Assembly: GCF_000018465.1 (NCBI RefSeq)
Contig: NC_010085.1
Coordinates: 1,320,001 to 1,352,000, forward strand
Source of the DNA: Nitrosopumilus maritimus SCM1
GTDB taxonomy: Archaea; Thermoproteota; Nitrososphaeria; Nitrososphaerales; Nitrosopumilaceae
Length of the DNA stretch: 32,000 nt
Reading direction: 5' to 3'
This document shows, piece after piece, positions 7,742 through 29,118 of the stretch. The stretch's first letter is position 1. Every line of letters begins with the position of its first letter. Position numbers and translations under genes: made by a program. A model generated the notes under the pieces. The model searched no databases. It saw nothing but the letters and a program-made list of their open reading frames with translations, and had not been told where the DNA came from.

Positions 7742-7784
7742 AAGAAAAATTTCAAATTATCATATTTAACAATAAAGAAGAAAA

Positions 7785-7826: not shown

Positions 7827-7839
7827 TTAGTTTTCATTT

Positions 7840-11845: not shown

Positions 11846-11890
11846 TTTACTTGTTTTCAGGTCAGATGTTCATAAAGTATTCTAAGCTTA

Positions 11891-11932
11891 GATTTGAATC
11901 CCATAAGGTTTGAACCGTTTATGGAAACAAAA
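11891..11932. repeat. 42-bp intergenic hairpin repeat, copy 2
   Basis: GATTTGAATCCCATAAGGTTTGAACCGTTTATGGAAACAAAA. Read on the minus strand, the arms form an 8-bp stem (including one G-U) around a 12-nt loop. It lies 46-87 nt upstream of the 621-aa gene start. Confidence 0.8.
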
Positions 11933-11941
11933 AAAGTAGGA

Positions 11942-12325: not shown

Positions 12326-12453
12326 GACAGAACAAAATGCTGATAGTTGATAACCTTTTTTCCAAGAGATTTGAATCCCTTAAGACTCATCTACTGTTTT
12401 GTAGTCAAAATAAAACGCATTTAGGCATAACAATGGTGTAAAATAAAAAAAGG

Positions 12454-12846
12454 TCAAAGAGGCATGTTTTCTTCAACCCAATTGACAATAGTCATGATAT
12501 TTTGGATGTTGCCAAACTCTTCGCCTTCCAAACTTACAAAAAGCAAATGATTGTTTGGAAGTGGGACGGTAATTCGTTTGATTTTGTCATACGCCACAAT
12601 AGCGTATTTTCCCTTTCCAATTTTTTCAGAAAGCACATCACGTTTTTCCCAGCTTTCAATTGAACGTTTTAGAGACTCTTTTGTTTCATCTACTGTAAGG
12701 TAACTGGTTGTATTATCACGAATGCTATTCCATAGAATGTTTCCTTCATGATCACAGATTATTGCAACTCTAGAGCTAGGAATTTCTCCTAATATCATGT
12801 TCAAAAGCTTCTCTTCGTTCTCATTGACATTTTGTGTTACAGACAT
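12454..12846 (-). CDS. hypothetical 130-aa protein, paralogue of 13198-13590 (possible Roadblock/LC7-like fold)
   Basis: Shares EEKLLNMILGEIPSSRVAIICDHEGNILW and ...VPLPNNHLLFVSLE with ESELLAKEIFDADPQIVHLGLIDLEGNVLL and ...LYLPKITVYLTLE of the neighbour. The fold assignment is a guess. Confidence 0.5.
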   Translation of the reverse strand: MSVTQNVNENEEKLLNMILGEIPSSRVAIICDHEGNILWNSIRDNTTSYLTVDETKESLKRSIESWEKRDVLSEKIGKGKYAIVAYDKIKRITVPLPNNHLLFVSLEGEEFGNIQNIMTIVNWVEENMPL

Positions 12847-12982
12847 TAAATTTAGTTAGGATAATTGAAAATAACCTTAATGACTAAACATATGAAAATT
12901 TGACAGATTATTTTGAAAATTTTAAAAGGATTTTAAGTTTTTAAAAACTCATTCTTAGATAACATAAATTCCCAATCAAAAC

Positions 12983-13153
12983 ATGTCATTGTTAAAAACA
13001 ACAAGATTGACCAAACAGGGAGACCGCTTTGAAATTGAGATTCCTCATGAATGCGTTGAAAAACTAGGATGGAGAAATGGATTAGTTTTAGAGATAGACA
13101 TTCAAGATTCTGAAGCAACCATAAGGAAGTTACAGGGATTTTTAGGAAAATAA
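12983..13153 (+). CDS. AbrB/SpoVT-type (looped-hinge helix) DNA-binding protein, 56 aa (absent from ORF track)
   Basis: Hand translation from ATG 12983 to TAA 13151-13153: MSLLKTTRLTKQGDRFEIEIPHECVEKLGWRNGLVLEIDIQDSEATIRKLQGFLGK. It fits the SpoVT-AbrB pattern K-x-G-...-IP-x6-LG-x3-G-x-x-L-x-I and replaces the antisense track ORF 12933-13118. Confidence 0.6.
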   Translation: MSLLKTTRLTKQGDRFEIEIPHECVEKLGWRNGLVLEIDIQDSEATIRKLQGFLGK

Positions 13154-13197
13154 AGCTTCAGTCATACAATACTTTGTTTTTTCTTCTAGTACTAGGA

Positions 13198-13590
13198 TTA
13201 AACTCCGCTCTTCATGATATCACTATCAAGGAATTTGATTTTTTGAGTAGCTGCTTTTACTTCATCAGGAGTCATTGATTTTTCCAAAGTAAGATAAACT
13301 GTAATCTTTGGCAAGTATAGAATTACTTGTTGCATTTTTTCTCGAATAATGTGGACATAATCAGTTTGTCCATATGCTTCATCCAAATGTTCTCTTGCAT
13401 GTCTCCTCACATCAAGTTGATGATAAAATGCGATTCTATCCTCATCAGGTTCTGTAGGTTCAGATGCAGCTGATGATTGATCTAGTAAGACATTTCCTTC
13501 CAAATCTATTAGACCTAGATGAACGATTTGTGGATCAGCATCAAAGATCTCTTTTGCTAGTAGTTCAGATTCTGCAGTCATCAATTTCAT
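13198..13590 (-). CDS. hypothetical 130-aa protein, paralogue of 12454-12846
   Basis: See the paralogue entry. Same length, shared N-terminal D-x-EGN-(V/I)-L and C-terminal LP...L-x-LE blocks. Confidence 0.5.
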   Translation of the reverse strand: MKLMTAESELLAKEIFDADPQIVHLGLIDLEGNVLLDQSSAASEPTEPDEDRIAFYHQLDVRRHAREHLDEAYGQTDYVHIIREKMQQVILYLPKITVYLTLEKSMTPDEVKAATQKIKFLDSDIMKSGV

Positions 13591-13684: not shown

Positions 13685-14440
13685 TCATCTAGTTTTCAGC
13701 AAAGTCTTGTGAATCTTGGAGCCGTACTGTAACGCTTTCTTTCGTTTGTTACATGAAACTTCAGGAACGCCGACTTTACTTGCAAGTTTTCTTATCATGT
13801 GTTTGCGATAGATGTCTTCAGAATCTGTAATCTTGTCTGAAATTGGTACAGTCTTTGCATATGTGATAAAATCTGGTGAGAGTAATGGCTGTAGAATTTG
13901 TACTCCAAATTCAGATGCAATCATGTTTACTGCCTTCATCATTTTGAGTTCATTGTCAAGTTTGTCCTCCATTACCTCTTGGATTTTGGATTCGCCACCT
14001 GAAAACGCCTCCCTGTACGCATTATATCCACAGAATAGCTCATCAATTCCGTTTGCAGTAACTACTGTACAAATCCCTAGACTCTTTGCAAGCTTTGATA
14101 CGTAATGAAATGCAATACAGTTTTCATTCCAAGACAAATTGTCAGTTTTGATTTTATCGTGAATGCCTGATGATATTGATGGAAATGTTTCAGGTTCAAT
14201 TTCTAAGATATGATGAGGGTAATTCAGTTGTTCATTGACTTCTTTTGCAAACAAGATATCATGGGATTCAGCAAATCCAATTGTAAGTAGTGTAATGTCA
14301 TAATCCATGTCTTTGCAGATTTTGGAGATTAGTGTGCTATCAACACCACCTGAATATGCAATTCCAATTTTTTTATCTGTAACTGTTTGAGTAATTGCAG
14401 TTTTGATGTTATCAAATAGTTCTTGATATTTTGCATCCAT
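13685..14440 (-). CDS. PP-loop ATP pyrophosphatase, asparagine-synthase C-terminal-domain-like
   Basis: PP-loop IGIAYSGGVDSTLISK (SGGxDS) plus ANGIDELFCGYNAY, which resembles the AsnB synthetase-domain motif. No glutaminase domain is present. Confidence 0.7.
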   Translation of the reverse strand: MDAKYQELFDNIKTAITQTVTDKKIGIAYSGGVDSTLISKICKDMDYDITLLTIGFAESHDILFAKEVNEQLNYPHHILEIEPETFPSISSGIHDKIKTDNLSWNENCIAFHYVSKLAKSLGICTVVTANGIDELFCGYNAYREAFSGGESKIQEVMEDKLDNELKMMKAVNMIASEFGVQILQPLLSPDFITYAKTVPISDKITDSEDIYRKHMIRKLASKVGVPEVSCNKRKKALQYGSKIHKTLLKTR

Positions 14441-14546
14441 GGTATCTCTCTAGTTTCTATAAAGGGTAATGAATCAACCTCTAAATCAGCTTTTTAGGCA
14501 CAACAATTAGAATTTTAACTGTTAAGAATTTAGGAGATTGTGTAGA

Positions 14547-15326
14547 ATGAATACAAAGTTACTTCGCAATTTAGGAATAGCAGCTGTAGTTGTAATTGTC
14601 ACAATATTTGCAGTTGGGTCAATAGAACAGCAAGAACAAAAACTTGATTCTGTAGAAAATAAAATAGAAGTAGAAAGTGTTCCTGTAGAAAATGAAATTG
14701 AAGTAAAAAATGAACCTGTAGAAAATAAAATAGTAGAAAGTGTTCCTGTAGAAAAGCAAATAGTAGTAAAATCCACAGAATGTTCAGGAGATGCTTTGTG
14801 TTTTTCTGGTAAAATTACGCAGATAATTGATGGAGACACTGTTAAAGTCGATGGAAAGTCTATACGATTTGCACTAGTTGATGCTCCTGAATTAAAATAC
14901 GATGGCGGACAAGCAAAACAATTTCTCGAACAAGTTTGTCCAGTTGGATCTCAAGTTATAGTTGATCAGGATGACGATCAACTTTCAGACAAGTATGGCA
15001 GAATGTTAGGAGTGATTTACTGTAATGGTATGAATCTAAATCAAGAAATACTTGATTCAGGTATTGGAGATCTTTATGAAGCATTTTGTGATCAAAGTGA
15101 ATTTGCTACTCATTATTGGGCAACAAAACATGGATGTGGTGATTCAGAAGATGAAATAACAACTCAACAAATTCAAGACTGTGATTCATCTTATCCTGAC
15201 TTTTGCATTCCATCTTCACCACCTGATTTAGATTGTGGCGATATCTCTCAGAAAGATTTCACAGTATTGCAACCGGATCCACATAGATTTGATGGGGATA
15301 AGGATGGCATTGGATGTGAATCCTGA
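14547..15326 (+). CDS. membrane-anchored thermonuclease (SNase-like) with C-terminal Excalibur Ca-binding domain
   Basis: Contains a TM anchor (LGIAAVVVIVTIFAVG) and an acidic VE-repeat linker. The SNase core is GKITQIIDGDTVKVDGKSIRFALVDAPE...YGRMLGVIY..G.NLNQEILDSG, and the Excalibur motif is DPHRFDGDKDGIGCE. I prefer ATG at 14547 over the track TTG at 14538. Confidence 0.75.
   Translation: MNTKLLRNLGIAAVVVIVTIFAVGSIEQQEQKLDSVENKIEVESVPVENEIEVKNEPVENKIVESVPVEKQIVVKSTECSGDALCFSGKITQIIDGDTVKVDGKSIRFALVDAPELKYDGGQAKQFLEQVCPVGSQVIVDQDDDQLSDKYGRMLGVIYCNGMNLNQEILDSGIGDLYEAFCDQSEFATHYWATKHGCGDSEDEITTQQIQDCDSSYPDFCIPSSPPDLDCGDISQKDFTVLQPDPHRFDGDKDGIGCES
14652..14768 (+). repeat. in-frame imperfect tandem repeat encoding VENKIEVESVP / VENEIEVKNEP / VENKIVESVP / VEKQIVV
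   Basis: GTAGAAAATAAAATAG..TAGAAAGTGTTCCT recurs at 14652 and 14718, with shorter GTAGAAAA units between. It lies entirely inside the nuclease CDS. Confidence 0.8.
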
Positions 15327-15701: not shown

Positions 15702-16520
15702 ATGACAACAAATCCCGTAATGCTTGATTCAGATTTCAAGTATATCGACAAGAAAGGAAATCTAATGAAGACTAGAACAGAGTTGACAGTAGCACAAATG
15801 CTAGACTTTCTTGAAGACGAATACCAGTACAATCACAAAGTTACATTGAAAAGTGGAACTGAAGTTACAGTTGATTTCAAAACTGACAAGGGACTAATTG
15901 AAGTAATTGACAATGAAGAGGACATTGCAAAGTACAAACAGATCAAAGAAGACTTTCCTGATCAAAAAGTAATGGCAATTGGACACGGAAAGTATGCTGC
16001 ACAGCTAAAAGAGTTGCAAGATATTGTATTTTATGATAAATCACCACAAACAGGTTCTATCTTTTTGGATGATGGATCATTTGCATTTGATTATGCACAC
16101 ATCTTGCCACTAGTTGAGAAATGTTCGATTCTACATGGACATACATCATCTGTAATGGTGGAATTGGTTGGACAGATGAAAGACAATCTACTTGTAGACT
16201 TTGGAGAAGCAAAAAGAATTGTCAAAGATGTATTGACTGCATTTGATCACAAGTTTTTCATTAATAGAAAGTACATGAAATCTGAAGATGATTCTCATTA
16301 TGTAATAAAATTTGAAGGACCTAAAGGAATGTTTGAGTTACAAGTTCCAAAACATACAACATATCTTTTAGAAGGAGAAGCTACTGTAGAGAATTTATCA
16401 AGTGAGCTTATCAAATTACTAGCACCTAAGATGCCATCAAACGTTGAAGCTGTTGGCGTTTACATTTACGAGGGATACAACAAGGGTTCCCACATTATAT
16501 CAAACATCTCAAAAGATTAA
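15702..16520 (+). CDS. 6-pyruvoyl-tetrahydropterin synthase (PTPS/QueD)-like protein with extra N-terminal domain
   Basis: The C-terminal half FDYAHILPLVEKCSILHGHTSSVMVELVG...LLVDFGEAKRIVKDVLTAFDHKFFIN matches the PTPS pattern (AaH-L...C..LHGH.y.v.V..G...DF..lk..v......DH..lN). The N-terminal ~125 aa are unassigned. Confidence 0.7.
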   Translation: MTTNPVMLDSDFKYIDKKGNLMKTRTELTVAQMLDFLEDEYQYNHKVTLKSGTEVTVDFKTDKGLIEVIDNEEDIAKYKQIKEDFPDQKVMAIGHGKYAAQLKELQDIVFYDKSPQTGSIFLDDGSFAFDYAHILPLVEKCSILHGHTSSVMVELVGQMKDNLLVDFGEAKRIVKDVLTAFDHKFFINRKYMKSEDDSHYVIKFEGPKGMFELQVPKHTTYLLEGEATVENLSSELIKLLAPKMPSNVEAVGVYIYEGYNKGSHIISNISKD

Positions 16521-16644
16521 GAATTAAGCCTAAACTATGCAAAACTATGCAGTTTTTTTCTAAAATGAGTTGATTTTGTGTTGACCCCGAATCAACAATT
16601 TACCACGTAAAGATCGTAATAGCACCATATACCTTAAGGGAATT

Positions 16645-17190
16645 ATGGCACAGGTTTTAGAAAAAAAGGGAGGACCATACCCAAAAAATAAGAAAATTAA
16701 GCGACAAAATGAGGTATTTCGTTTACATTTTGATTTAGGTTATTCTGCAGTAAAAATTTCTGAAATGATGAATGTTAATCGTAACACCGTTAATGGGGAC
16801 ATCCATTATTGGTATGGAATTCTTTCAAAAGAATGGGAGAGTTATGATATTGAAGCATGGCATATGAAACAGGTTCACAGATTAGAGTCTCAGAGAACCA
16901 GATTGTTTCAAGAGTTGGAAAAGACTACAGAAACCACAGTAAAGTTATCTATTGAAAGAATGATTTTGGATATTGATATCAAAATGACAAACTTTGTTTC
17001 AAAATCAGTGTATACTCAAGATTGGTTGAGAGATAGATCAGTAGCTTGGATCAATAAATGGGCAAAAGAGAACAATTCAAAGTATAGATTACTTGATGCA
17101 AATGCAGCTTGGTATACTAGTGAAGAGATTACTGAAAAGGTTCGTAAATTAATTCATGATGGTAAGATTGAGAAACGTGGAAAGATTTGA
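16645..17190 (+). CDS. hypothetical protein with putative N-terminal helix-turn-helix
   Basis: 181 aa. RQNEVFRLHFDLGYSAVKISEMMNVNRNTVNGDIHYW looks like a three-helix HTH (resolvase/terminase-small-subunit style). The remainder is helical and unassigned. Confidence 0.45.
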   Translation: MAQVLEKKGGPYPKNKKIKRQNEVFRLHFDLGYSAVKISEMMNVNRNTVNGDIHYWYGILSKEWESYDIEAWHMKQVHRLESQRTRLFQELEKTTETTVKLSIERMILDIDIKMTNFVSKSVYTQDWLRDRSVAWINKWAKENNSKYRLLDANAAWYTSEEITEKVRKLIHDGKIEKRGKI

Positions 17191-17218
17191 TCATTTATCT
17201 TTAATGTAAAAAACAACA

Positions 17219-17626
17219 TCAGATGGGATAGTGAGGCATAAGATCCCTTGCAAGAAACTTTTTGATGTCGCCACCTTTTTCGTTCTGATAACCTACAACA
17301 CATTCTGAACCTCCAAGTTCAAAAATCCAGTCCATGCAGCTACCACAAGGTGTGAATTGTGTCCTTTGTGCCACCACAAGAATCGCCGTTAACTTTGTGC
17401 AGCCGCTTGATACCAAAGATGATATTGCTGAAACCTCTGCATGTATGTCGTGTGAACGGAATTTGTGTTCTATGTTGCATCCGGAAAAAATTTTCCCTTC
17501 TCCGGAAACCACTGCTGCACCAACCTGCGTCTTTCCAAGAACTCGTGCATTGGAATGAGAGTTCCAAGCAATTTCAGACATCTGATTCCAAATAGATTCT
17601 TCGACCAAGACACTCAACTTTTCCAT
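17219..17626 (-). CDS. cdd: cytidine/deoxycytidylate deaminase family protein (small CDA-like)
   Basis: Zinc-binding motifs HAEVSAI (H-A-E) and TPCGSCMDW (PCxxC) have the correct spacing in a 135-aa protein. Its ATG lies inside the last 13 nt of the upstream NACHT gene. Confidence 0.8.
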   Translation of the reverse strand: MEKLSVLVEESIWNQMSEIAWNSHSNARVLGKTQVGAAVVSGEGKIFSGCNIEHKFRSHDIHAEVSAISSLVSSGCTKLTAILVVAQRTQFTPCGSCMDWIFELGGSECVVGYQNEKGGDIKKFLARDLMPHYPI

Positions 17627-20079
17627 TCACCCTTTTTGTATTTTGATAATCGTTCTTCCCAATCTTCATCATGCACATGATCTGATTTTGATTCCTTTAC
17701 CTTTTCGAGCAAGGGAATCACAGACTCATCCCATTGCCCATATGCATTTCTGTAAAAGACTGTCTTTCCAATTTCATCAAGAATGTTTTTCCTTAATTTC
17801 GAAGCCATATTTCCTAATTTGTCTAGGATATCTTTACGCATATCCGCATCTTCAGTGATTGCAGCCATTTCCACCAATGCACGAGCAGCACCATATCGTA
17901 CCCAATGATAGGGGTCTGTTTCTAGAGCAATGAATAGTAGTTTTTTATTTTCCTCTGAGGGGCACTTTCCAAGTGGATGAATAATCCTCCATCTACGGGT
18001 GTTCTGATTTGGAACATCTGCATCAGAATAATCATACATGTCTCTTAGATCTTTTTGGTTTTCCTCACTTAGATTGCATTCACGTAAAACATTTGATGCA
18101 GTCCAACCAATCAAAGAATTGTCAGATTTTAACAACTTGAGAGTTTCATCATTGATTTCTGAATCACGTTTAATGGTAAACAATTGTTTCCATTCATCAA
18201 ACAAATCTGATTCAGATTTCATGACACTTATCATATCTATTAATTCTTTAAGATTATTTGCTTTAGTCAATTGTTCACCAAAGGTTTTCTCATAATCTCC
18301 CAAGTGATTTTTTGCAGATTCAGAAGTTTCATAACCATTATCAAATTGTTTTTGTGCAACCAATACTAACATTGCAGTAACTATATCTTCAGAATGATTG
18401 TTAATTCCTAACTTGGAATTTAATATGATGGATGCAATTGCAGCTTTCCAATTCCAATCATATACCTCCAACAAAAATCTGTCAGCAAGTTCTTTATTTT
18501 CGATCTGTTGCATTACCAGATGGATAGATTCTAGTGAACTGGACTCCAAAGTAGCTATGTCAAATTCATCTACATCCCAATTCTCTGGGTGTGATGCCAA
18601 ATATTCGGATACAAGAAAATCATGTAATAATTGATGACTAAATGTTGCATGGGTGTCACTTGTCGTAAATGCCGCACCTCCACCTAACAGTTTATCAAAT
18701 GTCTCTTGTCCTGTAATCTCTACAAAGTTTTTCAACTCAAATGATACCGAACCTTCTTGATATGCAAAAAATGACGCTTTTGCTAATTTCTTCATTTCCT
18801 CCTCATTCATCTTCAATCTCTCTTTGAAGAAATCATTTAGTACGGAAGATTCAGAAGTCATAGAAGCTGAACATCTCTCCATGGCAATATTGAGAAAGAA
18901 TGGTCTGGATAACAAACTCATGCTTACATCATTCAACTCATATTGTTCTTTACCAATAGTAATGTCTAGATTTTTTCTTATCTCTTCTTCACTCAAAGGA
19001 TTCAATGTAATTTTGTTCCATCCTGTAAGTGCACCACGTACATCCATCCTGTCCGTTAGCAGAACATATGTGTGAGGAGAAGTTTGTCTTACATATTCTC
19101 CTACATCTTGAATTATTTTTTCTGTTAATTCACCAAAATCGCCTGATTTGAATTCATTTATGCCATCAATCACTATTATGACATCTCCCTCAAAACTTTT
19201 GAGACGTTCCACTGTAATTTCCACACTAGACATTTTCAGCAGTTTGTCTATGCGTGACTCAGCACTTTCATCTCTCGCATCCTCCAATTCTTTAAAAAAT
19301 TCTGTTTCACTTCCATTAATGGGGATAAAAACAGGAAGAACCTTTTCTTTAACAATAGATTTGAGAAACTCTGTAACTGTGTTACTCTTTCCGCTTCCTG
19401 CAGCGCCTTTTAGGATTACTTTTCTTTTTGATTTTATGATTGAATGTAATTCAGTTATTGGAAATTTTTCTCCGTTTTCATCAGAAAATGTAATCCCAAA
19501 CTTATGTTCTGGTGGGGGTTTAGCTTCAAGTTTTGTAGTAAGTTCTTTAAGATATGATAAAAGGTTTAGATTTCCTTGCTGAAATTGTTGATCTTGGTCT
19601 CCAGAATCTTTTGTAACAGTTTGTTCATGAACTTCTTTAAGTATTCCAATTGCTTTATCCATTTTACTATCTAACTTTGTGGCAATATTCAGAATTTTTT
19701 GATTATATGCTGTCATAATTTTCTGAAAAGATGTTTCAGCTCCTTCCATCTCAATTTTTTGTTTTATTTCTGTTAACAGTTTTTCTGAATCAAATTTGTA
19801 TTCTGTATCTTGAAATGCATTTTCTAGTCCTTTAAGCAGGTTCAGGAAGTCTTGAACAGATCCTTCAGATAATTTTTTGAAATTGTCTGAAAATTCTTGT
19901 TTTGACAAAACATCAATTAGTATATCTCTACTTTCTGGATATTTGGCGCCAAATTCATCAATAATTTCTGTACGATATTCATTCCAATTCCACTTGAATG
20001 ATTTTTGAGCAAACTTGAATATCATTTCTGCAAGGGATAGTCCTAATCCTATCTCAGAAGACATGTTTTCTTCATTCAT
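17614..20079 (-). CDS. STAND NTPase: unassigned N-terminal helical domain + NACHT-type P-loop + C-terminal HEAT-like repeats
   Basis: Walker A is VILKGAAGSGKSNTV and Walker B is DVIIVIDGINEF (the NACHT-style hhhhDGhxE). The C-terminus has DPYHWVRYGAARALVEMAA (PBS-lyase/HEAT-like). The first ~215 aa are helical with no motif I recognise. Confidence 0.75.
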   Translation of the reverse strand: MNEENMSSEIGLGLSLAEMIFKFAQKSFKWNWNEYRTEIIDEFGAKYPESRDILIDVLSKQEFSDNFKKLSEGSVQDFLNLLKGLENAFQDTEYKFDSEKLLTEIKQKIEMEGAETSFQKIMTAYNQKILNIATKLDSKMDKAIGILKEVHEQTVTKDSGDQDQQFQQGNLNLLSYLKELTTKLEAKPPPEHKFGITFSDENGEKFPITELHSIIKSKRKVILKGAAGSGKSNTVTEFLKSIVKEKVLPVFIPINGSETEFFKELEDARDESAESRIDKLLKMSSVEITVERLKSFEGDVIIVIDGINEFKSGDFGELTEKIIQDVGEYVRQTSPHTYVLLTDRMDVRGALTGWNKITLNPLSEEEIRKNLDITIGKEQYELNDVSMSLLSRPFFLNIAMERCSASMTSESSVLNDFFKERLKMNEEEMKKLAKASFFAYQEGSVSFELKNFVEITGQETFDKLLGGGAAFTTSDTHATFSHQLLHDFLVSEYLASHPENWDVDEFDIATLESSSLESIHLVMQQIENKELADRFLLEVYDWNWKAAIASIILNSKLGINNHSEDIVTAMLVLVAQKQFDNGYETSESAKNHLGDYEKTFGEQLTKANNLKELIDMISVMKSESDLFDEWKQLFTIKRDSEINDETLKLLKSDNSLIGWTASNVLRECNLSEENQKDLRDMYDYSDADVPNQNTRRWRIIHPLGKCPSEENKKLLFIALETDPYHWVRYGAARALVEMAAITEDADMRKDILDKLGNMASKLRKNILDEIGKTVFYRNAYGQWDESVIPLLEKVKESKSDHVHDEDWEERLSKYKKGEWKS

Positions 20080-20091
20080 AATCCTACAATA

Positions 20092-20126
20092 AAATCATTC
20101 ATACAATAATATTTCATGAATGATTT
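20092..20126. promoter_or_regulatory. perfect 11-bp inverted repeat just upstream of the NACHT gene start
   Basis: AAATCATTCAT (20092-20102) and ATGAATGATTT (20116-20126) are separated by 13 nt, 13-47 nt upstream of the ATG at 20079. The arm sequence ATGAATGA also forms the first codons of the gene. A second small palindrome ATATCT/AGATAT lies at about 20131-20149. Confidence 0.45.
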
Positions 20127-20204
20127 CCTGATATCTGAAATATAGATATGTACTCTATTAACAACACAAAATTCTCTCAAGATCTATCAGAAACTCCAAT
20201 CGTA

Positions 20205-21287
20205 TTATTTGAGATTTTTTCTTATTTCATGTGCTAATGATTCTGCCACCAAAGGAGGAACTGCATCTGCAATTTGCTGATATTGTGAATTATTTGTGCC
20301 AAAAAATCTGAATGAGTCTGGAAAACTCTGTATTCTAGCTGCCTCTCTTACAGATATTATTCTATTTTCTTTAGGATGTAACAACATAGCTCGTCTTGCA
20401 TGAACAATTGTAGGAGTTGTATGTTGATAAGATAAACGTCTATAGATATTACCATGAAGAGAATTTTTATTTTTGAATCTAGATTTTGTTTTTTTAGATA
20501 GTGTTTTCCATGAATCAAGTAAACTTCTTCCTTCGTTAATTTCAGAAATTGTATTGATTACATCTTCTCCGTGTTTCGTACACCAATGATTGTACAAGTT
20601 ATTGATGTTTCCTCCTAATTTTTTTCCATATGGGGAATTAAATTTTTTAGGATGTTTCATAATTTCGTTTCCAGATGTACCTTGTTTTATAGAAGGTAAT
20701 CCTGAAATGACATCAAAAAGATTATCGCATGAAACAGGAATTTTGATCAAATTCAAATTACATTCATGTCCATTCAAAAAACCTGTTACAAAGAGTCGTT
20801 TTCGTTTTTGTGGAAGTCCTGCTTTTTCACAATCAATCACAGATACGCTCAGAATGTATCCTAATTTTTTAAAATCATTGAGGAATTTTTTCCAACCTGG
20901 GAGATTTCTAAAATTGGTAACATTTTCAAATAAAAATGCCTGAGGTTTTAATTCAGATATTATTCTGAAATAATGATTTATAGCATTTGCAAAGGGATGA
21001 TTTTTGCCATTATTTTGTTTATTTGCATTTGAATAAGGTTGACAAGGAGGTCCTCCTATTACACAAAATCTCTCTTTTGATGTGATTTTTTTTAGTTCGT
21101 TTGATTTTATGTTTTTTATATCATCTACAATTAATTTAGTCTCCTTGAAATTTTTTGAATATGTTTCAGCAGCACTCTTATCAAATTCCACTGCTGCAAT
21201 GACTTTGAACCCTGCATTCTTAAATCCTAAACTTAATCCACCTGAACCTGCAAATAGATCGATAACGCCAATTTCTTCTTTCCTCAT
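20205..21287 (-). CDS. DNA (cytosine-5)-methyltransferase
   Basis: All conserved m5C MTase blocks are readable. They are I DLFAGSGGLSLGF, IV GGPPCQPYS, VI FLFENV, VIII QKRKRLF, IX SVREAARIQSFPDSFRF and X QIADAVPPLVAESLA. Confidence 0.93.
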   Translation of the reverse strand: MRKEEIGVIDLFAGSGGLSLGFKNAGFKVIAAVEFDKSAAETYSKNFKETKLIVDDIKNIKSNELKKITSKERFCVIGGPPCQPYSNANKQNNGKNHPFANAINHYFRIISELKPQAFLFENVTNFRNLPGWKKFLNDFKKLGYILSVSVIDCEKAGLPQKRKRLFVTGFLNGHECNLNLIKIPVSCDNLFDVISGLPSIKQGTSGNEIMKHPKKFNSPYGKKLGGNINNLYNHWCTKHGEDVINTISEINEGRSLLDSWKTLSKKTKSRFKNKNSLHGNIYRRLSYQHTTPTIVHARRAMLLHPKENRIISVREAARIQSFPDSFRFFGTNNSQYQQIADAVPPLVAESLAHEIRKNLK

Positions 21288-21363
21288 ATTTTTAATAAAT
21301 TAAATCTGGATAAAAATCAAGTCCTGCAAGATTTATGTCATACCATGTTATTTTCATAATTAC

Positions 21364-22236
21364 ATGGCCTTATTTTTTAATGACCCAAAATTCCATACAA
21401 TCTATGAAAAAATAATGGATCTCAATGAATTGGTTTGGGAGAATAAATTAGATCCCTTTATGATTGAACAATGGCTAGAAAACTTTGATACTAAATCTGA
21501 TAAATTAGAAATGTTGGAATTGTTATCTAAATTTACTTATTACAATGAAAAAGAAATTTCTTCTCTTCTCACGTCCTCTTTTGAACTCTTGAAAAGCTAT
21601 TTGAGTTTGATTCACCTAAATCAAAAAATTGAAATTAGTGATTTGAATGAATTTGTGAAAAACAACTGTTATTTCGTTGGGACATGGGAAAATCCCAGTA
21701 AAAGTGGAGTTCATCTTTTATATGATTTTAGAGTTTTAAACAAATTACCCCCCAGAATTTTTTGTAACACTGTAAAAGATGTTCCAAAAAATGCACCGTT
21801 TGTTATTTTTCTTGACGATATTGCTGGTAGTGGAAGACAGGCCAGCGACTTCTGGAATCTACGAGTAATAAAGGAAAGAAAACATCTAACAAATACGAAA
21901 TTTCTCTATTTGGTATTGGTTGGAAATGAAAAGGGTATTGAGTATATTGAGACAAAAACTAAGATCAAAGTTCTTCCAGTGGTAAAATTAGATGATAGAT
22001 ACAAATTATTTTCAAAATCATCTATTTATTTCCCTGACAAAAAAAAGAGGCAAAAAGTACAAAAAATTTGTGAAAAATATGGGAAGAGACTATATGCCAA
22101 TAACCCTCTAGGTTTTGCAAATTCTCAAATGTTAATAGGCTTCCATCATAATATACCTGATAATACGTTACCAATAATATGGGAAAATAAAAATAACTGG
22201 GATCCAATATTCCCACGTTTTGGAGCTGTGGTGTAA
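21364..22236 (+). CDS. phosphoribosyltransferase (PRTase)-fold-like protein, first gene of three-gene operon
   Basis: 290 aa. The hydrophobic-DD-small-GSG loop PFVIFLDDIAGSGRQASDFW resembles the PRPP-binding loop of type I PRTases (hhhhDD-x-x-T/S-G-x-T). The preceding YFVGTWENPSKSGVHLLYDF resembles the PRTase core. The N-terminal ~110 aa are helical and unassigned. Confidence 0.45.
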   Translation: MALFFNDPKFHTIYEKIMDLNELVWENKLDPFMIEQWLENFDTKSDKLEMLELLSKFTYYNEKEISSLLTSSFELLKSYLSLIHLNQKIEISDLNEFVKNNCYFVGTWENPSKSGVHLLYDFRVLNKLPPRIFCNTVKDVPKNAPFVIFLDDIAGSGRQASDFWNLRVIKERKHLTNTKFLYLVLVGNEKGIEYIETKTKIKVLPVVKLDDRYKLFSKSSIYFPDKKKRQKVQKICEKYGKRLYANNPLGFANSQMLIGFHHNIPDNTLPIIWENKNNWDPIFPRFGAVV

Positions 22237-22241
22237 AGAGC

Positions 22242-24224
22242 ATGCAAATTAGAAATCCCTTTGAAGAAGTAAATGCAAATAATCTAGATGATGATGAAAT
22301 CTTAGATTTTTGGATTAAACCTGAGGGTATTTTCAACAAACAGCTTGAGGGAATCAAATTAACTGGTCTCACTCCATTGTTTTTATTTGGTGGAAGGGGT
22401 ACTGGAAAAACTACCGTTTTAAAATACATGTCATTTGATCTACAACAAAAAGAATTTCTTAAAAAAAATACTGACATGAAAAATTTCTTAACAAAAAATA
22501 ATTTCATAGGAATTTATCATAGATTTGATGGTCCACAACTGGACGCATTTAATGCAGGACCAGATGATCGAAAATGTCTTGAAGCATTTCGATTTTTTAT
22601 TGAACTTGTACTATCACAAAATTTCCTTTGGATTGTTGAAAAACTTCTAGAAAACAAATCCATCACTTCAAAATTTAATGAAAAAACCCTATGTGCTAAT
22701 ATCTCTGAATTAATTTTTGGCAAAAAAATCACATCTTTGTCTACCATCTCAAAAATTAGGAAAAAATTAGGAACTATTCAGTATTCCTTAGAGAAAGCAC
22801 GAGATAAATCTGCAATAGATGGAAAAGAAATTGATATTAAAAATATAATTCCTAGAGGTAGACTAATTTTCGATCTACAAAATGAAATCACAAAAACTAT
22901 TCAAGAACTCAAAAACATAAAAATTCTTTATTTGTTTGATGAGTATGAAAATCTCACATATGATCAACAATTACTTTTCAATACTCTGATCAAACATAGG
23001 AAATTCAATGTAAGTTTCAAAATTGGTTCTCGTTTAAAGGGTGTGAAAACTTACGATACATTAACAACTGAGGAATATCTTAGAGAACCTGCTGATTATA
23101 GAAAAATAATCTTTGAAAATATTCTAAATGTCTCGTCATTAGAATACAAAAAAATTCTTATTAAAATTGCTGAAAAACGCTTACGTCACATTCCTGAATT
23201 TAAATCAAAGAATCTAACCGATATTAAAAAAATCCTGGGCTATAGCCTTTCACCTGAACAAGAAGCCAATAGGATTGTTAACTCTAGCAAAGACAAACGA
23301 AAACATTTCTACAAAATTGAAAAACACAAAAAAACTTCAATTAGTGAAAAAACAATATCTGACTTAAAATGTGAAGGAAGGCCATTAATTGAAAAACTGA
23401 ATATGATGTTATTAAATCGAAACTATCCAATATCTAAAATCAAACTAATGATGAACCATTTTGTTTCTAGAAACTCAAAATCAAGTTATCATAAACAATA
23501 CAAAAATCTCTATGACAAAAACAAAGTTGCTTTATTGTTTCAATTGATATCTGACTACAGACCTAGGGAGAAACAATATTCTGGATTTGATACTTATGTG
23601 AGTCTTTCTTCTGGTATCATAAGGACTTTCCTAGAATTATGTTTTCATGCATTTCATTTTGCAATATTTGCCGAACAAAAGAATTTGTTATCTGGTAAAC
23701 CAATATCTCACGAATTACAAAATGATGCTGCAAAATTAATGTCACAGAAATATTATGAAGAAATTGCAGTGATTCCTAAAGGCTATGGGGTGTTTGTTGC
23801 TAGATTAGTTGATAACATTGGTTCAATTTTACGTGGATTACATAAAGATCCTCTAATTTCTGAACCTGAACCCACATACTTTACAATTGAATATGAAAAT
23901 CTTGATTTGAAAACTAGAAGTGTTATTGACACTGCAGAACAATGGTCAATTTTACAACGAACTATTTCTATGAAGCCAAAAGCAAAATTACAAGCACATC
24001 TAACTGATTTTCATATTAATAGAATGTTCTGTCCAAAATATTCAATTTCATATCGTAGACGAGGTAGAACATTAATCACTCCATCTGAAATACACATTCT
24101 AACATTTGGGAATGAACAAGAACAAAAAACTATTCGTGAATTAGTTAGTAGAGAAAAAGAAGTTAGAAAGGCTAGGAAAGTCAGAGACCAAGGACAACCC
24201 AAAATTATTGATTTTTTAGATTAA
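22242..24224 (+). CDS. P-loop ATPase (AAA/ORC-Cdc6-like N-terminal domain) with large unassigned C-terminal region
   Basis: Walker A is LFLFGGRGTGKTTVLKYM and Walker B is KILYLFDEYENL. It starts 5 nt after the upstream stop. About 400 C-terminal residues carry no motif I recognise. Confidence 0.65.
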   Translation: MQIRNPFEEVNANNLDDDEILDFWIKPEGIFNKQLEGIKLTGLTPLFLFGGRGTGKTTVLKYMSFDLQQKEFLKKNTDMKNFLTKNNFIGIYHRFDGPQLDAFNAGPDDRKCLEAFRFFIELVLSQNFLWIVEKLLENKSITSKFNEKTLCANISELIFGKKITSLSTISKIRKKLGTIQYSLEKARDKSAIDGKEIDIKNIIPRGRLIFDLQNEITKTIQELKNIKILYLFDEYENLTYDQQLLFNTLIKHRKFNVSFKIGSRLKGVKTYDTLTTEEYLREPADYRKIIFENILNVSSLEYKKILIKIAEKRLRHIPEFKSKNLTDIKKILGYSLSPEQEANRIVNSSKDKRKHFYKIEKHKKTSISEKTISDLKCEGRPLIEKLNMMLLNRNYPISKIKLMMNHFVSRNSKSSYHKQYKNLYDKNKVALLFQLISDYRPREKQYSGFDTYVSLSSGIIRTFLELCFHAFHFAIFAEQKNLLSGKPISHELQNDAAKLMSQKYYEEIAVIPKGYGVFVARLVDNIGSILRGLHKDPLISEPEPTYFTIEYENLDLKTRSVIDTAEQWSILQRTISMKPKAKLQAHLTDFHINRMFCPKYSISYRRRGRTLITPSEIHILTFGNEQEQKTIRELVSREKEVRKARKVRDQGQPKIIDFLD

Positions 24225-24225
24225 A

Positions 24226-25155
24226 ATGAAAAATATCCAAGAACTTGATTCATTAATCCAAGTAAAACCGTTAGAATATGATTATTTTATTTATACAAAA
24301 AATTCAGAAAAGAGATCATCAAACGTACTAAATATTTTTAAAAAATCAAAAATCAAAATTAAAAATTTAATTGAATTACAGTTTGAAGACACTCAAACAC
24401 CTAAAATCAGAACAATTGGATCAAGATATGTGATCACTTGTCCTTACAGACATGTTCTTATGGGCATTAAATCTATTTTTGACTTATTACACAATCTACA
24501 TTTCAAAATTAATGATAAGGTGTGTATTGATATTACTGGTACTGATGTACCATATTTTTTCCATCTTCTAAAAACACTCAAATTTAAAAAAATGTTATCA
24601 AAAATTGATTTAGTATACACAGAACCTGAAACATATAAAAAAACTTCAAATAAATTTATTTTTTCCGAGGGAATTAGAAATGTAAAACAATTTCCTGCAT
24701 ATACTGGAAGAACAAACCCAAATGGGAAAAAAATACTTTTGATTTTAATAGGTTTTGAAGGACACCGTTCATACAAAGTCTTAGACTCTATTGAGCCCGA
24801 CAAAACATTGGCGCTAAATGGATTTCCAAGTTATTCGTTAGAATTCAAAGATACTAGTATTCTTGAAAACAAAGAACTGTTAACTAGTCCATCATGTAAA
24901 AATAATACTCTTTTAGCATCAGCACACAATCCTTTTGAAACATTAAAAATTCTCAATAATCTTCCGTCTAGCCACAAGAAACATAATTTAATCATGGCTC
25001 CTATAGGAACAAAACCTATGTCTTTAGGGGCTTGTCTTTATTGTCTCAAAAATGAATCGGTTCGCGTAGTTTTTCCTTATCCCAATTCATATATTTCCAA
25101 AAATGCACCTGCAGAAAAAATTGGTAAAACTTGGATCTATCAATTAGTTCTTTGA
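24226..25155 (+). CDS. hypothetical Rossmann-like protein with DITGT and IGTKPMSLGA motifs (possible CARF/DxTGGTK-like ligand-binding fold)
   Basis: 309 aa, starting 1 nt after the upstream stop. Beta-strand-then-glycine patterns (KVCIDITGTDVPYFFHLL; KILLILIGFEGHRS; HNLIMAPIGTKPMSLGACLY) suggest Rossmann-like units. GTKxMS resembles the DxTGGTKxMS motif of some CARF-family proteins. Weak, by-eye only. Confidence 0.35.
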   Translation: MKNIQELDSLIQVKPLEYDYFIYTKNSEKRSSNVLNIFKKSKIKIKNLIELQFEDTQTPKIRTIGSRYVITCPYRHVLMGIKSIFDLLHNLHFKINDKVCIDITGTDVPYFFHLLKTLKFKKMLSKIDLVYTEPETYKKTSNKFIFSEGIRNVKQFPAYTGRTNPNGKKILLILIGFEGHRSYKVLDSIEPDKTLALNGFPSYSLEFKDTSILENKELLTSPSCKNNTLLASAHNPFETLKILNNLPSSHKKHNLIMAPIGTKPMSLGACLYCLKNESVRVVFPYPNSYISKNAPAEKIGKTWIYQLVL

Positions 25156-25205
25156 GTCCGTAACTACAAGTCTCTTTGATGTAACAATGGTTCAAGTTTC
25201 AAGAA

Positions 25206-27521
25206 TCACTCAAGATTGTGCATTGATTGCAAATCTTTCTTAAACTCTGACAAACTTTCAGGAACTTCAACTGCAATAGAGTCCTTTAATGACAATTCTT
25301 TTGCCTTTTTCTCATTCCATACTTTAGAGTTAAACTGTACAACTTCTTCAGTGGTTTTGGAATAATCTTCTACCTTTTCAGATTCAGCTTGTCTTTCAGT
25401 ATGAATACTAGTCTCAGAGTATAGTGTCTGCCACAAATGCTCTGTGATAAATGGTGTAATTGGTGCCAATAATTTCAAGACTGTGGAGAGTACTTTGTGT
25501 AGTGTGTAAATGGCTGCATCTCGTTCCTCTTCAGAAAATCCTTCTCCGTAGGCTCGTTTTTTGACCATTTCGATGTAATGAGCTGCAAACAAATTCCAAG
25601 TAAATTCCCTGATTGCAATTGCTGGAACAAAGAAGTTGTATTCATCATATCCTTTCTTGCAATCTTTAATCAAATTGTTCAATTCAGACAAAATCCACTT
25701 GTCAACGGTAGTTGGTTTTCCTTCTTTGATTACAGGAAAGCTTGACAAGAATCTTGAGACATTCCATAGTTTGCTCAAGAATTTCTTTGTAGACTCTATC
25801 TTTTGCTCATTGCATCTAAAGTCATAACCATGATTAATCTCACTTGCACTCCAGAATCGAAATGTGTCAGCTCCAAATTTCTCTATTACTGGTAATGGAT
25901 CAATTGCATTTCCTTTACTTTTACTCATCTTCATTCCTTTCTCATCTAAACCATAACCCATAATCCAAGCTTCAGTCCATGGTTTTTTACCAGTTAACAT
26001 ATCACAACGCAAAAGTGTGTAATACAACCAAGTCCTTACAATATCTTTTGCTTGAGGTCTAAGTGATGTTGGATAAGTTTTCTCAAAGAATTCTGAATCC
26101 TTATCATACTTTGTAACAAACAATGGCGATACACTAGAATCCATCCATGTATCAAATGTTCTATCCTCCCCAGTAAATTCACCATTACCGCACTTTGTAC
26201 ACTTTTCAATTGGACACTTCTCCTTCCATGGTTGATAGTACTTTCCTGGTTCAGGGACGTGCGGTTCATTACAACTAGAACAATACCAAATTGGAATCTC
26301 TGTTCCATAGTATCTTCGTCTTGAGATTGGCCAGTCAATGGATATGGAATCAAGCCAATTCATCAAAATCTGCTTGTGCATAGAGGGGTAAAACGTGATT
26401 TCTGAGCCTAATTTTCGCATTTTTTCAATGGAATCTTTCTGTTTGAGATAGTACTCCTCCATGGGTATAATCTCAATTGGAATCTTACTTCGCTCTGAAA
26501 TTGGTGTTCTATGATTAATCTCTTCGATTTTTTCTACAAATCCTTTTGATTCTAAATCTGCAATAATTTTTTCTCTAGCTTGTTTTGGTTTGAGTCCTGC
26601 ATATTCTCCTGCAGCTTCAGTCATCCTTCCATCCAAACCAATTGCAACAATCTCTTCTAGTCCCATCTCTCTAAACAATGCAACGTCATTTTGATCACCA
26701 TAACTACAAACCATTACAGCTCCTGAACCAAAGTCTTGCTGAGCTGAATGGTGAGTCTTGATTTCAACTTCCGCCCCTGTAATTGGTACAACTACTTTAC
26801 TTCCAACAAATGGAGCATATCTTTCATCTTCAGGGTTTACAATAATGGTACGACATGCACATAGTAGTTCTGGTCTTGTACTTGCAATGATGATTTCCTT
26901 ATCCATATCTTTAATCTTGAATTTCATGTGAACTAGCTTTGTCATCAAATCTTGGTATGCAATTTCAGCATCAGCAATTGTAGTGCCAGATACCCAATCA
27001 TAGTTGTTAGGTCGAGTAGCTAGAACAATCTTTCCTTCTTTCCATAGTTTGATGAATGTTGATTGTGTTAATGCACGATATTCTTCTGAATCTGTTCTGT
27101 AATGATTCTTCAAGTCACCACTCAAACCAAGGTTTGTCATAATCAACACCATCTCTTCTTCCAAGTCATCTAGTGCTTCTCGGCACAAATCCAAGAATTC
27201 TCCTCTGTCAGTTTCCCTCATTCTGATGTTGTGTTTTTTCTCAGTGTAGAACTCTACAGGCAAACCATTTCTGTCAATTCCAATTGGAAAGTAGACGTTC
27301 TTGCCATTCATGCGAGCAGTTCTTGCAATCATGTCTATCTGAGAATAGTGAGCAGCAGCTCCAATGTGCCATGGCCTGCCTGATGGGTATGGTGGAGGCG
27401 TATCTATGGTGTAATTATCATCAGTTGGAGTGAATTTGTAAAGGTCTGAATCCTGCCATTTCTTTAAGACCTGTGCCTCTAACTCTGGATTCCAAGCTTT
27501 CTCTGTAATTTTTGGGTCCAT
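25206..27521 (-). CDS. valS: valyl-tRNA synthetase (class Ia aaRS)
   Basis: Class I motifs PPPYPSGRPWHIGAAAH (HIGH region) and KMSKSKGN (KMSKS), an editing-domain insertion, a Cys-rich knuckle and TFDTWMDSS. The 771-aa size fits compact archaeal ValRS better than LeuRS or IleRS. Confidence 0.75.
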   Translation of the reverse strand: MDPKITEKAWNPELEAQVLKKWQDSDLYKFTPTDDNYTIDTPPPYPSGRPWHIGAAAHYSQIDMIARTARMNGKNVYFPIGIDRNGLPVEFYTEKKHNIRMRETDRGEFLDLCREALDDLEEEMVLIMTNLGLSGDLKNHYRTDSEEYRALTQSTFIKLWKEGKIVLATRPNNYDWVSGTTIADAEIAYQDLMTKLVHMKFKIKDMDKEIIIASTRPELLCACRTIIVNPEDERYAPFVGSKVVVPITGAEVEIKTHHSAQQDFGSGAVMVCSYGDQNDVALFREMGLEEIVAIGLDGRMTEAAGEYAGLKPKQAREKIIADLESKGFVEKIEEINHRTPISERSKIPIEIIPMEEYYLKQKDSIEKMRKLGSEITFYPSMHKQILMNWLDSISIDWPISRRRYYGTEIPIWYCSSCNEPHVPEPGKYYQPWKEKCPIEKCTKCGNGEFTGEDRTFDTWMDSSVSPLFVTKYDKDSEFFEKTYPTSLRPQAKDIVRTWLYYTLLRCDMLTGKKPWTEAWIMGYGLDEKGMKMSKSKGNAIDPLPVIEKFGADTFRFWSASEINHGYDFRCNEQKIESTKKFLSKLWNVSRFLSSFPVIKEGKPTTVDKWILSELNNLIKDCKKGYDEYNFFVPAIAIREFTWNLFAAHYIEMVKKRAYGEGFSEEERDAAIYTLHKVLSTVLKLLAPITPFITEHLWQTLYSETSIHTERQAESEKVEDYSKTTEEVVQFNSKVWNEKKAKELSLKDSIAVEVPESLSEFKKDLQSMHNLE

Positions 27522-27535
27522 TTTTAATTTTGAAA

Positions 27536-28153
27536 TTATTGTTTTGTTTCTTTAACTAGATTTACAAAATATTTGTGAACTGCTAAATCATCAGTTAGTT
27601 CTGGATGGAAAGATGTTCCAATGATGTTTCCTTTCTTGATTGCAACAATTTTCTCATTTAGTTTTGCTAAAACTTCAATGTCATCTGATGTGGATGAGAT
27701 AGCTGGAGCTCGAATGAATACTCCATTATAGTTTGAGATTCCAATTGAGTCCATAGAGACATTTGCCTCAAATGATTCACGTTGTCTACCAAAGGAATTT
27801 CTTTCAAGTTCGATATCTAGAAAATCAAATAGCGGTTGCTCTGTTTTTCCAACAACTCTATCAGTTGCATTGCTTGCAAGTAGCACCATTCCAGCACAGA
27901 TTCCTAGTACTGGCATTCCAGATTCTACCTTTTGCTTGATTACTTTTTGAGAGCCATTAACCAAAGACAATTGTCCAATGGTAGTGCTCTCACCGCCAGG
28001 AATGACCAATCCATCCATTGCAGAAATCTCCTCAGGAGTCTTTACAACATGAACAGTTGCATCCTGATTCAAATCAGCAATTGATGCTACCAATGATGAA
28101 ACATTTTCTGCAACATCACCCTGAATGGCTAAAATTCCAATCTTTGCGCTCAT
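27536..28153 (-). CDS. pdxT: pyridoxal 5'-phosphate synthase glutaminase subunit PdxT
   Basis: [13 protein letters not shown], nucleophile elbow GICAGMVLL, and [15 protein letters not shown]. Its start overlaps the pdxS stop (28150-28153). Confidence 0.92.
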
Positions 28154-29118
28154 GCGGAACCGCCTCTATCTTGCATACGTAACTCTAGAGTTTTAACATC
28201 TAATCCTAACATTGATTGTCGCTCATCAATCATCTTTTGAGCTTCTTTGACCTTGTCTGCCTCATTCCAAAATGTTGTAGCTAAAACAATTGCTCTTGCA
28301 CGCTCTGCTGCATCATCAGCTGCAAAAATTCCAGAACCAACAAAGATTCCATCACATCCTAATGACATCAGATATGCTGCATCAGCTGGTGTTGCAATTC
28401 CACCTGCTGCAAAATTAACAACAGGCAATCTTCCTAGTTTTGCAGTTTGCTCTACAATATCATAAGATACTTTGAATTCTCTTGCCATTCTAACTAGATC
28501 TTGATTGTCCCCTGAATCATACATTGACTTTATTGTTCTTAATTCATCATTTACTTTTTTGATATGAGTGATGGCTTCAGCAACATTGCCAGTTCCTGGT
28601 TCTCCTTTTGTTCTAATCATTGCAGCTCCTTCTTCAATTCTTCTCAAAGCTTCAGCCAATGATCTAGCACCATTAACAACAGGTGTTGTCATGTCCCATT
28701 TCCAAATGTGACGTAGCTCATCAGCTGGAGTCAACACTTCAGATTCATCAATCATGTCAACATCAGTCTCTTGTAACACAAGAGCTTCATTGACATGACC
28801 AATTCTACATTTTGCCATTACAGGAATTGTAACTGAATCCATAATCTCTTCAATAATTCTAATACTTGCAGTTCTTGCAACACCACCTGCCTTTCGAACG
28901 TCTGATGGAAGTTTGTCCAATACCATAACAGAGACTGCGCCTGCTTCTTCAGCAATCTTGGCTTGCTCTACATTTGTGACATCCATTACAACTCCATTTT
29001 TTAGCATGTGGGCAAATCCACGTTTCAGAGTTGAAGAGCCACGAATAACATCGCCAGAGTCTAATTTTTCAGAAATTATTCCCTTTGCGTCTTTACGTTC
29101 CCCAGATAATGGAAGCAT
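28150..29118 (-). CDS. pdxS: pyridoxal 5'-phosphate synthase lyase subunit PdxS
   Basis: [84 protein letters not shown] and [13 protein letters not shown] match PdxS/SNZ along the full length. Confidence 0.95.

Follow-up and report, generated by a model that had tools for sequence, protein, structure and literature searches.

A probable species-specific mosaic defence island at a re-used valS-pdxT slot in Nitrosopumilus maritimus SCM1

The closed genome of Nitrosopumilus maritimus SCM1 (G000; 1,645,259 bp, guanine plus cytosine (GC) content 0.342) raises the question of how seven intact open reading frames came to lie between a PTPS-like gene on the left and valS, the gene for a ValRS of archaeal type (NCBIfam match), on the right. 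The interval spans positions 16521-25205 of the window, by which we mean the whole 32,000-nt stretch of DNA analysed here (bases 1,320,001-1,352,000 of the genome). A first-pass annotation had described it as an AT-rich accessory island without integrase that could be either an old decayed element or a recombination hot spot for defence genes. The reading we favour, with a probability of about 0.78, is that the interval is a species-specific mosaic defence island occupying a slot re-used throughout the genus, that its genes entered by recombination, and that an inversion displaced it to its present position beside PTPS.

The valS-pdxT slot and its inversion in SCM1

Ancestrally, the slot is flanked by valS and pdxT. 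In ten genomes of the genus compared in detail the common gene order is purB, an Asn-synthase-like gene, a pterin dehydratase gene, PTPS, valS, a gap, pdxT and pdxS. PTPS and valS are co-directional and 1-10 nt apart in these genomes, and pdxT and pdxS occupy the strand opposite to valS, which places the slot between convergent 3′ ends. In SCM1 the PTPS/QueD-like core gene (15702-16520, plus strand; Pfam PF01242; position relative to valS compared in 24 genus genomes) adjoins the cargo directly, and valS (25206-27521, minus strand; NCBIfam NF009687; orientation compared in 86 genus genomes) is flipped relative to both PTPS and pdxT. It sits 14 nt downstream of the core gene pdxT (27536-28153, minus strand; SNO glutamine amidotransferase, assigned from PF01174 and synteny), on the same strand. 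In blastn comparisons with the closest relative, G163, whose valS is 97% identical in amino acid and 91% in nucleotide sequence, the flanks match in reverse complement, whereas valS (25201-27524) and the 5′ part of a helix-turn-helix (HTH) gene at the other end of the island (16661-16816) match directly. A single inversion of approximately 16521-27530 (about 11 kb, from the HTH gene to valS) therefore explains the arrangement, and the order that precedes it, with PTPS and valS reading in one direction towards the cargo and the HTH gene and pdxT reading towards it in the other, is the arrangement found in G163. PTPS borders the slot because valS and the cargo were inverted together, and the position between PTPS and valS given in the first-pass annotation is thus a derived one.

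The junctions are sharp. On the left (breakpoint 16517-16531, from blastn and junction alignments against G163, G420 and G472), homology to the PTPS genes of relatives stops at 16516-16517 and homology to their pdxT-to-HTH spacer starts at about 16531. On the right, the breakpoint is the 14 nt that separate the start of valS from the stop of pdxT (27522-27535, junction alignment). The breakpoints contain only AT-rich 5-6-mers and no inverted repeats, and microhomology of this kind is not interpretable. The inverted orientation occurs in two of about 90 genus genomes, SCM1 and G472; in two others, G440 and G450, valS and pdxT lie far apart. G472 has the HTH gene after PTPS on the same strand, followed by valS and pdxT on the other, with no further cargo. 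The two genomes share a derived junction in which pdxT ends in ...ETKQ* (...ESKN* in other genomes) and the spacer that separates it from the valS ATG reads TTTCAAA(A)TTAAAAA. From these alignments the inversion most likely arose once. As a result valS has lost its PTPS upstream context and follows pdxS-pdxT on their strand (27522-29118), and its transcription is now probably tied to the pyridoxal phosphate synthase operon. Another rearrangement at the same junction is seen in G007 (G007:C1:1883100-1884960), where a second copy of PTPS precedes a valS pseudogene carrying eight stop codons; this pair is oppositely oriented to the intact one, which is about 80 kb away.

Occupancy of the slot varies widely among the 86 genus genomes in which valS and pdxT are convergent on one contig. 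In 44 of them the slot is effectively empty, with a gap of less than 200 bp; the 42 occupied slots hold inserts of 0.2-44 kb, with gaps of 0.2-1 kb in 5 genomes, 1-1.5 kb in 10, 1.5-2.5 kb in 18, 2.5-6 kb in 5 and over 6 kb in 4. This distribution fits the proposal of a recombination hot spot for defence genes, and gene order at the locus is not conserved in relatives, in keeping with the accessory content that the first-pass annotation had assigned to it; the condition which that annotation had named as refuting an island thus does not hold. All states are represented within the close clade, defined by valS at least 92% identical in amino acid sequence: the slot is empty in G477, G418 and G444, contains only an HTH gene in G420 and G472, carries an HTH gene with defence cargo in G163 and SCM1, and holds other cargo in G247, G189 and G405. 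In five of 13 close relatives (G462, G421, G475, G385 and G446) valS and pdxT are on different contigs and the assembly breaks at the slot, as would be expected of a hot spot that varies within populations. Cargo elsewhere includes two secreted proteins in several species and an SNase-like gene in G405. The 7.7-kb slot of G163 encodes the HTH protein, Vsr, a 5-methylcytosine (m5C) methyltransferase, an AlwI-like endonuclease, a CARF6-like protein and an ORC-CDC6-like ATPase with an N-terminal extension; these proteins are only 25-39% identical to those of SCM1. The SCM1 cargo is likewise of defence type, comprising an m5C methyltransferase, a PRTase-CE protein, a CARF6 protein (PADLOC), a NACHT-like nucleoside triphosphatase (NTPase) and a deaminase. 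Relative to G472, the DNA specific to SCM1 runs from about 16558, just past a motif and T-run upstream of the HTH gene, to about 25214 at the valS stop, and replaces 0.58 kb that carries a different, shorter HTH allele.

In bacteria, defence islands and hot spots for defence genes in the core genome were reportedly described by Makarova et al. in 2011 and in later surveys of E. coli and Pseudomonas. A defence island at a core-genome hot spot is of a known kind: the slot between core genes is fixed, it is empty or filled, its varied cargo is mostly defensive, and mobility genes are often absent. What is unusual here, in a marine ammonia-oxidising archaeon, is the HTH gene that caps one end of the insert and the inversion of the flanking gene valS together with the cargo.

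Composition contributes less than synteny to this picture. The GC content of the whole stretch is 0.317 against 0.342 for the genome (z -1.1; 9% of same-size windows are lower), and the claim that it is AT-rich holds for 20080-25205, the only low-GC part (0.296, z -1.9, lowest 3.8% of windows), but not for the left 3.6 kb (0.347, typical for the genome). Tetranucleotide distance from the genome is not significant, and synonymous codon usage is ordinary in six of the seven genes, the sole deviant being the GC-rich deaminase gene (GC 0.435). The AT contrast looked stronger in the first-pass annotation because the core genes on either side have an above-average GC content (0.378). Composition alone does not establish an island, and its status as one rests on comparative genomics.

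The HTH cap and its upstream element

The gene at the left end of the island (16645-17190, plus strand) encodes a 181-aa protein with weak Pfam, NCBIfam and PHROG matches to HTH families, a sigma-70 region-4-like HTH at residues 20-50 and a helical part thereafter. It is preceded by a conserved element (16532-16605, plus strand) that recurs at HTH loci elsewhere. In SCM1 its parts are AACTATGCA/AACTATGCA in tandem, a T-run, a stretch rich in A and T, and TTGAC..(A)ATCAAC, an imperfect palindrome; in its general form it combines a tandem AACTATGC(C/A)A with a T-run, an A/T-rich stretch and a TTGAC...GTCAA-type palindrome. In at least 11 other genomes (named as G163, G051, G393, G017, G014, G468, G006, G450, G420, G472, G441 and G405) it precedes HTH homologues by about 100 nt. 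It occurs once per locus and is never found at the far end of an insert. The first-pass annotation had correctly placed a T7 run at 16553-16559 and the nested hairpins GTTGATT/AATCAAC and GTTGA/TCAAC beside it. Its reading of them as an insertion border gives way to the observation that they belong to this element, and we rejected them as att sites on the same grounds. The other proposed border signal, ACTTGAACC near the right end, is indeed present in reverse complement at 25189-25197, within the right cargo boundary (25156-25214, mapped by blastn against G163, G472, G420 and G477), where the match to relatives sets in again at the stop codon of valS (25201-25215). As a signal it was discarded in favour of a chance or minor motif: the genome holds 20 copies where about 11 are expected, mostly in coding sequence.

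The HTH family is found in 31 of 120 other genus genomes, at one to three copies per genome, at different loci and in some cases with stop codons, and has 425 representatives in a large protein library. No relatives were found in scans of IMG/VR viral contigs, and a viral origin of the gene was set aside on that result. Wherever both flanks of an insert map onto SCM1 (G163, G441, G006 and G405), and in SCM1 itself, the HTH gene stands at the very end of the insert, with its upstream element facing the core flank and its 3′ end facing the cargo. HTH loci adjoin valS, hisS and leuS/alaS, and their other neighbours include AbiEii, an Mrr-like nuclease, DUF2130, proteins combining CARF and winged HTH (wHTH) domains, and IS4/5 transposases. 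In a maximum-likelihood tree the copies at the valS locus fall into three separate supported clades: that of SCM1 groups with a hisS-locus copy, that of G163 with other hisS-locus copies, and those of G420 and G472 with a leuS-locus copy. The alleles are not grouped by locus, from which it follows that the HTH gene moves together with the inserts and does not belong to the locus as such. The upstream element is a putative promoter and operator, and the HTH protein is probably an autoregulated transcription factor of variable inserts.

Copies of the motif also occur in SCM1 apart from any HTH gene. At genome positions 897995-898056, outside the window and between the rRNA operon and a hemL-like gene, there are tandem copies AACTATGCAGAACTATGCAG and AACTATGCCAAACTATGCCA; in other genomes an HTH homologue has genes for heme biosynthesis no more than 7 kb downstream. 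The slot adjacent to hisS holds HTH-capped inserts of about 9 kb in G441 and other genomes and is nearly empty in SCM1 (about 207000-207468 of the genome, outside the window), where a degenerate motif copy and a 31-codon open reading frame are found. Such solo motifs could be traces of former inserts or simply ordinary regulatory sites.

Two cargo modules

The island is a mosaic of three modules, the first being the HTH gene with its upstream element (16532-17190). Next to it is a two-gene module on the minus strand (17219-20079). It encodes an 821-aa NACHT-like NTPase, probably of the STAND class (17614-20079; weak AAA, NPHP3_N and HEAT Pfam matches) and a 135-aa protein of the cytidine/dCMP-deaminase fold (17219-17626; PF00383, E 2e-15), whose gene overlaps the NTPase stop by 13 nt. 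The NTPase is predicted to have a helical N-terminal domain, a P-loop domain at about 196-361, a winged-helix region and C-terminal HEAT-like repeats. Its AlphaFold model is poor (predicted local distance difference test, pLDDT, 61), and the top 30 Foldseek matches to it are all NLR/NACHT proteins and Avs4, in support of the NACHT label given in the first-pass annotation. A PD-(D/E)XK nuclease at the N-terminus, prompted by a weak DUF2161 match, was set aside on account of the all-helical N-terminus of the model. The NTPase has no relatives in 400 other genomes of the order and only four among 5.8 billion proteins. In all three metagenome contigs examined, the NTPase gene is followed by an overlapping gene for a 135-aa deaminase; the deaminases are 82-85% and the NTPases 48-61% identical to those of SCM1. 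An m5C methyltransferase is encoded on every one of these contigs, directly beside the NTPase-deaminase pair on two of them and at a distance of about 6 kb on the other, and these enzymes are only about 30% identical to that of SCM1; two of the three contigs carry Vsr and HATPase_c_3 genes as well. The deaminase was considered as a housekeeping cdd product, a possibility rejected on finding weak matches in only three of the 120 other genus genomes and constant coupling to the NTPase in the contigs examined.

The closest known counterpart is the Avs/AVAST group (Avs4, PDB 8dgf), which appears to share the NACHT-like P-loop NTPase with a C-terminal helical-repeat sensor and, with animal NLRs, is found among the Foldseek matches. 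Unlike Avs proteins, the SCM1 NTPase has no nuclease or other recognisable effector fused to it and no PADLOC match, and is compared through a low-confidence structural model; a separate, highly conserved deaminase of the cytidine deaminase (CDA) fold is translationally coupled to it. From this arrangement the NTPase is likely a sensor and the deaminase its effector, in which case an Avs-like NTPase would switch on the coupled enzyme.

The remaining four genes form a cassette (20205-25155). It opens with a 360-aa C5-cytosine DNA methyltransferase (20205-21287, minus strand; PF00145, E 3e-67; PADLOC MTase_II), which is encoded on the same strand as the NTPase and upstream of it. The genome has no other PF00145 match. 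The other three proteins, all on the plus strand and all unknowns in the first-pass annotation, match curated families: a 290-aa phosphoribosyltransferase-fold conflict effector, PRTase-CE (21364-22236; PF24390, E 4e-64; PADLOC PRTase_III-A), a 660-aa ORC-CDC6-like AAA+ ATPase (22242-24224; PF24389, E 7e-120) and a 309-aa CARF-fold protein with two Rossmann-like domains (24226-25155; PADLOC PDLC01922, CARF6, E 1e-151). The AlphaFold model of the 309-aa protein is confident (pLDDT 89, predicted template-modelling score 0.90), and Foldseek matches it to the CARF domains of Csm6, Cam1, Can2 and Card1 with probability 1.0. No sequence relatives of the NTPase, PRTase, ORC-like or CARF6-like proteins were found in the PDB. 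The ORC-CDC6-like ATPase has 180 relatives in archaea and bacteria, and within the order it occurs in 10 of 401 genomes, at different places. The four genes are kept together on four other contigs (L082, L083, L084 and L085, the last from a Methanosarcina mazei metagenome-assembled genome). The copy on L082, a Nitrosopumilus-like contig, is 67-76% identical in amino acid sequence (methyltransferase 74%) and 75% in nucleotide sequence over window positions 20251-25145; its place in the genome differs, and a Prim-Pol gene is nearby. A more remote form of the cassette, with ORC-like and CARF6-like genes beside a complete R-M system and Vsr, stands in the valS-pdxT slot of G163. Literature searches returned no paper describing the four-gene cassette. 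In G405 (L057/L093) an ORC-CDC6-like protein (775 aa) and a CARF6-like protein are encoded as a pair between a 177-aa gene on the pdxS side and a 347-aa gene. This second ORC/CARF pair is about 5 kb from the valS slot, and the same gap in SCM1 holds a CBS-domain gene (29952-30800).

Each component of the cassette resembles a known system in part. The CARF fold is that of the type III CRISPR effectors Csm6, Can2, Card1 and Cam1. In contrast to these, the SCM1 protein has no fused effector, and as sources of cyclic oligoadenylate the genome has neither a Cas10 above the curated cut-off (best match to the Csm1 model 17 bits against a cut-off of 170) nor a SMODS cyclase, so that any ligand of the CARF protein would not be an obvious signal of the type III CRISPR kind. 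The protein instead always follows the ORC/Cdc6-like ATPase and PRTase-CE, next to an m5C methyltransferase. The 290-aa protein matches the PRTase of type III-A retrons (PADLOC, E 4e-50) as well as Pfam PRTase-CE, but unlike in a retron there is no reverse transcriptase domain and no msr/msd RNA (Rfam) nearby, and its partners are the ATPase and the CARF protein. The central m5C methyltransferase recalls type II restriction-modification (R-M) with Vsr, as in the G163 slot with its AlwI-like endonuclease. In SCM1, by contrast, the methyltransferase is flanked by two NTPase-based modules, no restriction endonuclease family was recognised among the island proteins in Pfam, NCBIfam or PADLOC, and Vsr is absent from the genome. 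That a methyltransferase is a constant partner suggests a logic akin to that of R-M, and the cassette would then most likely be a methylation-linked system, either R-M-like or abortive, in which the methyltransferase marks self DNA.

Route of entry, neighbouring blocks and significance

How the cargo arrived has to be argued from the borders. Searches of the seven proteins against Pfam, NCBIfam, PADLOC and PHROGs found no integrase or transposase domain, no tRNA or Rfam family was found in the stretch, and direct or inverted repeats bracketing it over 16300-27800 are limited to low-identity, AT-rich chance pairs. The first-pass annotation, which had reported no integrase, transposase, tRNA or long direct repeat and had proposed a computational search of the borders, is borne out on these points. 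Replacement or insertion by recombination at a hot spot is favoured because mobility genes and att repeats are absent, the breaks are sharp and fall at conserved sequences, and the HTH alleles do not follow the locus. Under such a mechanism the cargo and its HTH cap would have entered without an integrase of their own, with the conserved 3′ end of valS on one side and the element upstream of the HTH gene, or pdxT, on the other serving as recombination anchors. One inversion in an ancestor shared with G472 would have preceded either the gain of cargo by SCM1 or its loss by G472.

Much of the same evidence would be expected if the HTH-capped inserts were true mobile elements moved by a trans-acting recombinase that recognises the AACTATGC tandem element at sites often beside aminoacyl-tRNA synthetase genes. 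The enzyme could be one of the five tyrosine-recombinase-like genes elsewhere in the SCM1 genome, where the nearest PF00589 match is about 75 kb away, or be supplied by a virus or plasmid. Such movement would account for HTH alleles that do not track the locus, for the position of the HTH gene at the insert end in five resolved cases, for an insert in G420 that starts exactly at the motif when compared with the empty site of G477, for the solo motifs that persist at the hisS and hemL sites of SCM1, for HTH loci beside valS, hisS and leuS/alaS, and for the L082 cassette near a Prim-Pol gene. We nevertheless regard it as unlikely, since no insert has a second motif copy at its far end, no target duplication is seen, IMG/VR viral contigs yield no HTH relatives, and the motif also precedes a core gene, as an ordinary operator would. 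A wider proposal is offered tentatively, as an unlikely one: the HTH gene and its AACTATGC element would be the hallmark of a so far undescribed class of integrase-less, HTH-capped mobile cassettes in Nitrosopumilaceae that move defence and other cargo among a few preferred slots, several of them beside valS, hisS and leuS/alaS, and a single m5C methyltransferase would serve two NTPase-based immune modules.

Two further explanations have far less in their favour. That the island is the remnant of an integrated virus or plasmid whose integrase and att sites were lost is very unlikely. The low GC of the right part, the lack of remaining mobility genes and the homologous cassette beside a Prim-Pol gene on a metagenome contig would suit it; yet all seven genes are intact, the only PHROG match is the weak one of the HTH protein, genes for structural or replication proteins are lacking, each module turns up on its own in non-viral settings, and unrelated non-viral cargo fills the same slot in many relatives. 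In Krupovic et al. 2019 (PMC6563490), N. maritimus SCM1 is mentioned once, as having one target gene of integrated mobile genetic elements free of integration. The suggestion of an old decayed element falls with the intact genes, and with the conservation of two cargo modules as units elsewhere. An assembly artefact in which the 11-kb block was mis-oriented in the finished genome would explain why the orientation is confined to two genomes, and is extremely improbable: the inversion is real because two independent assemblies show it, G472 having the same junction on a 39-kb contig, including the derived pdxT C-terminus, and there are no breakpoint repeats to mislead an assembler, and both junctions leave genes intact.

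Several points weigh against a recombined defence island as we have described it. The route of entry is argued from absences, and neither a target-site duplication nor a shared target sequence was seen at four pairs of empty and occupied sites, which included the valS, leuS and 1566-kb slots. The order of inversion and cargo gain would hang on one shared junction, and the close clade is star-like, with about 10-14% nucleotide divergence to all members. Composition lends weak support to a foreign origin. The motif that occurs twice before the core hemL-like gene may be an ordinary transcription-factor site unlinked to mobility. A defence function for the two modules is predicted from families, folds and gene neighbours, and neither the ORC-like ATPase nor the NTPase is covered by a profile in PADLOC (2023).

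The valS slot is accompanied by other variable blocks in the window. Between purB (3582-4943) and the Asn-synthase-like gene (13685-14440), which abut in most relatives, lies a second block specific to SCM1 (5203-13590); it holds a wHTH-methyltransferase gene (6250-7284) and a four-gene operon of secreted proteins without recognised domains, and G472 has only a DM13-domain gene (5203-6207) at this place. An SNase/Excalibur-domain gene (14538-15326) is present in SCM1 and G163 and absent from more distant members of the genus, and a 71% identical copy of it occupies the valS-pdxT slot of G405.

Archaea that oxidise ammonia are abundant among the microbes of the ocean. To our knowledge the acquisition of virus defence by these organisms is little documented, and we know of no CRISPR system described in N. 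maritimus SCM1. The locus is a hot spot, now mapped, that in close relatives is found empty, with the HTH gene alone, or loaded, and it brings to light two compact candidate immune modules that recur beside m5C methyltransferases. The HTH gene with its upstream element provides a marker for finding further variable inserts in Nitrosopumilaceae, and the same rearrangement that displaced the island has shifted an essential gene, valS, from its PTPS operon context to that of pdxS-pdxT.

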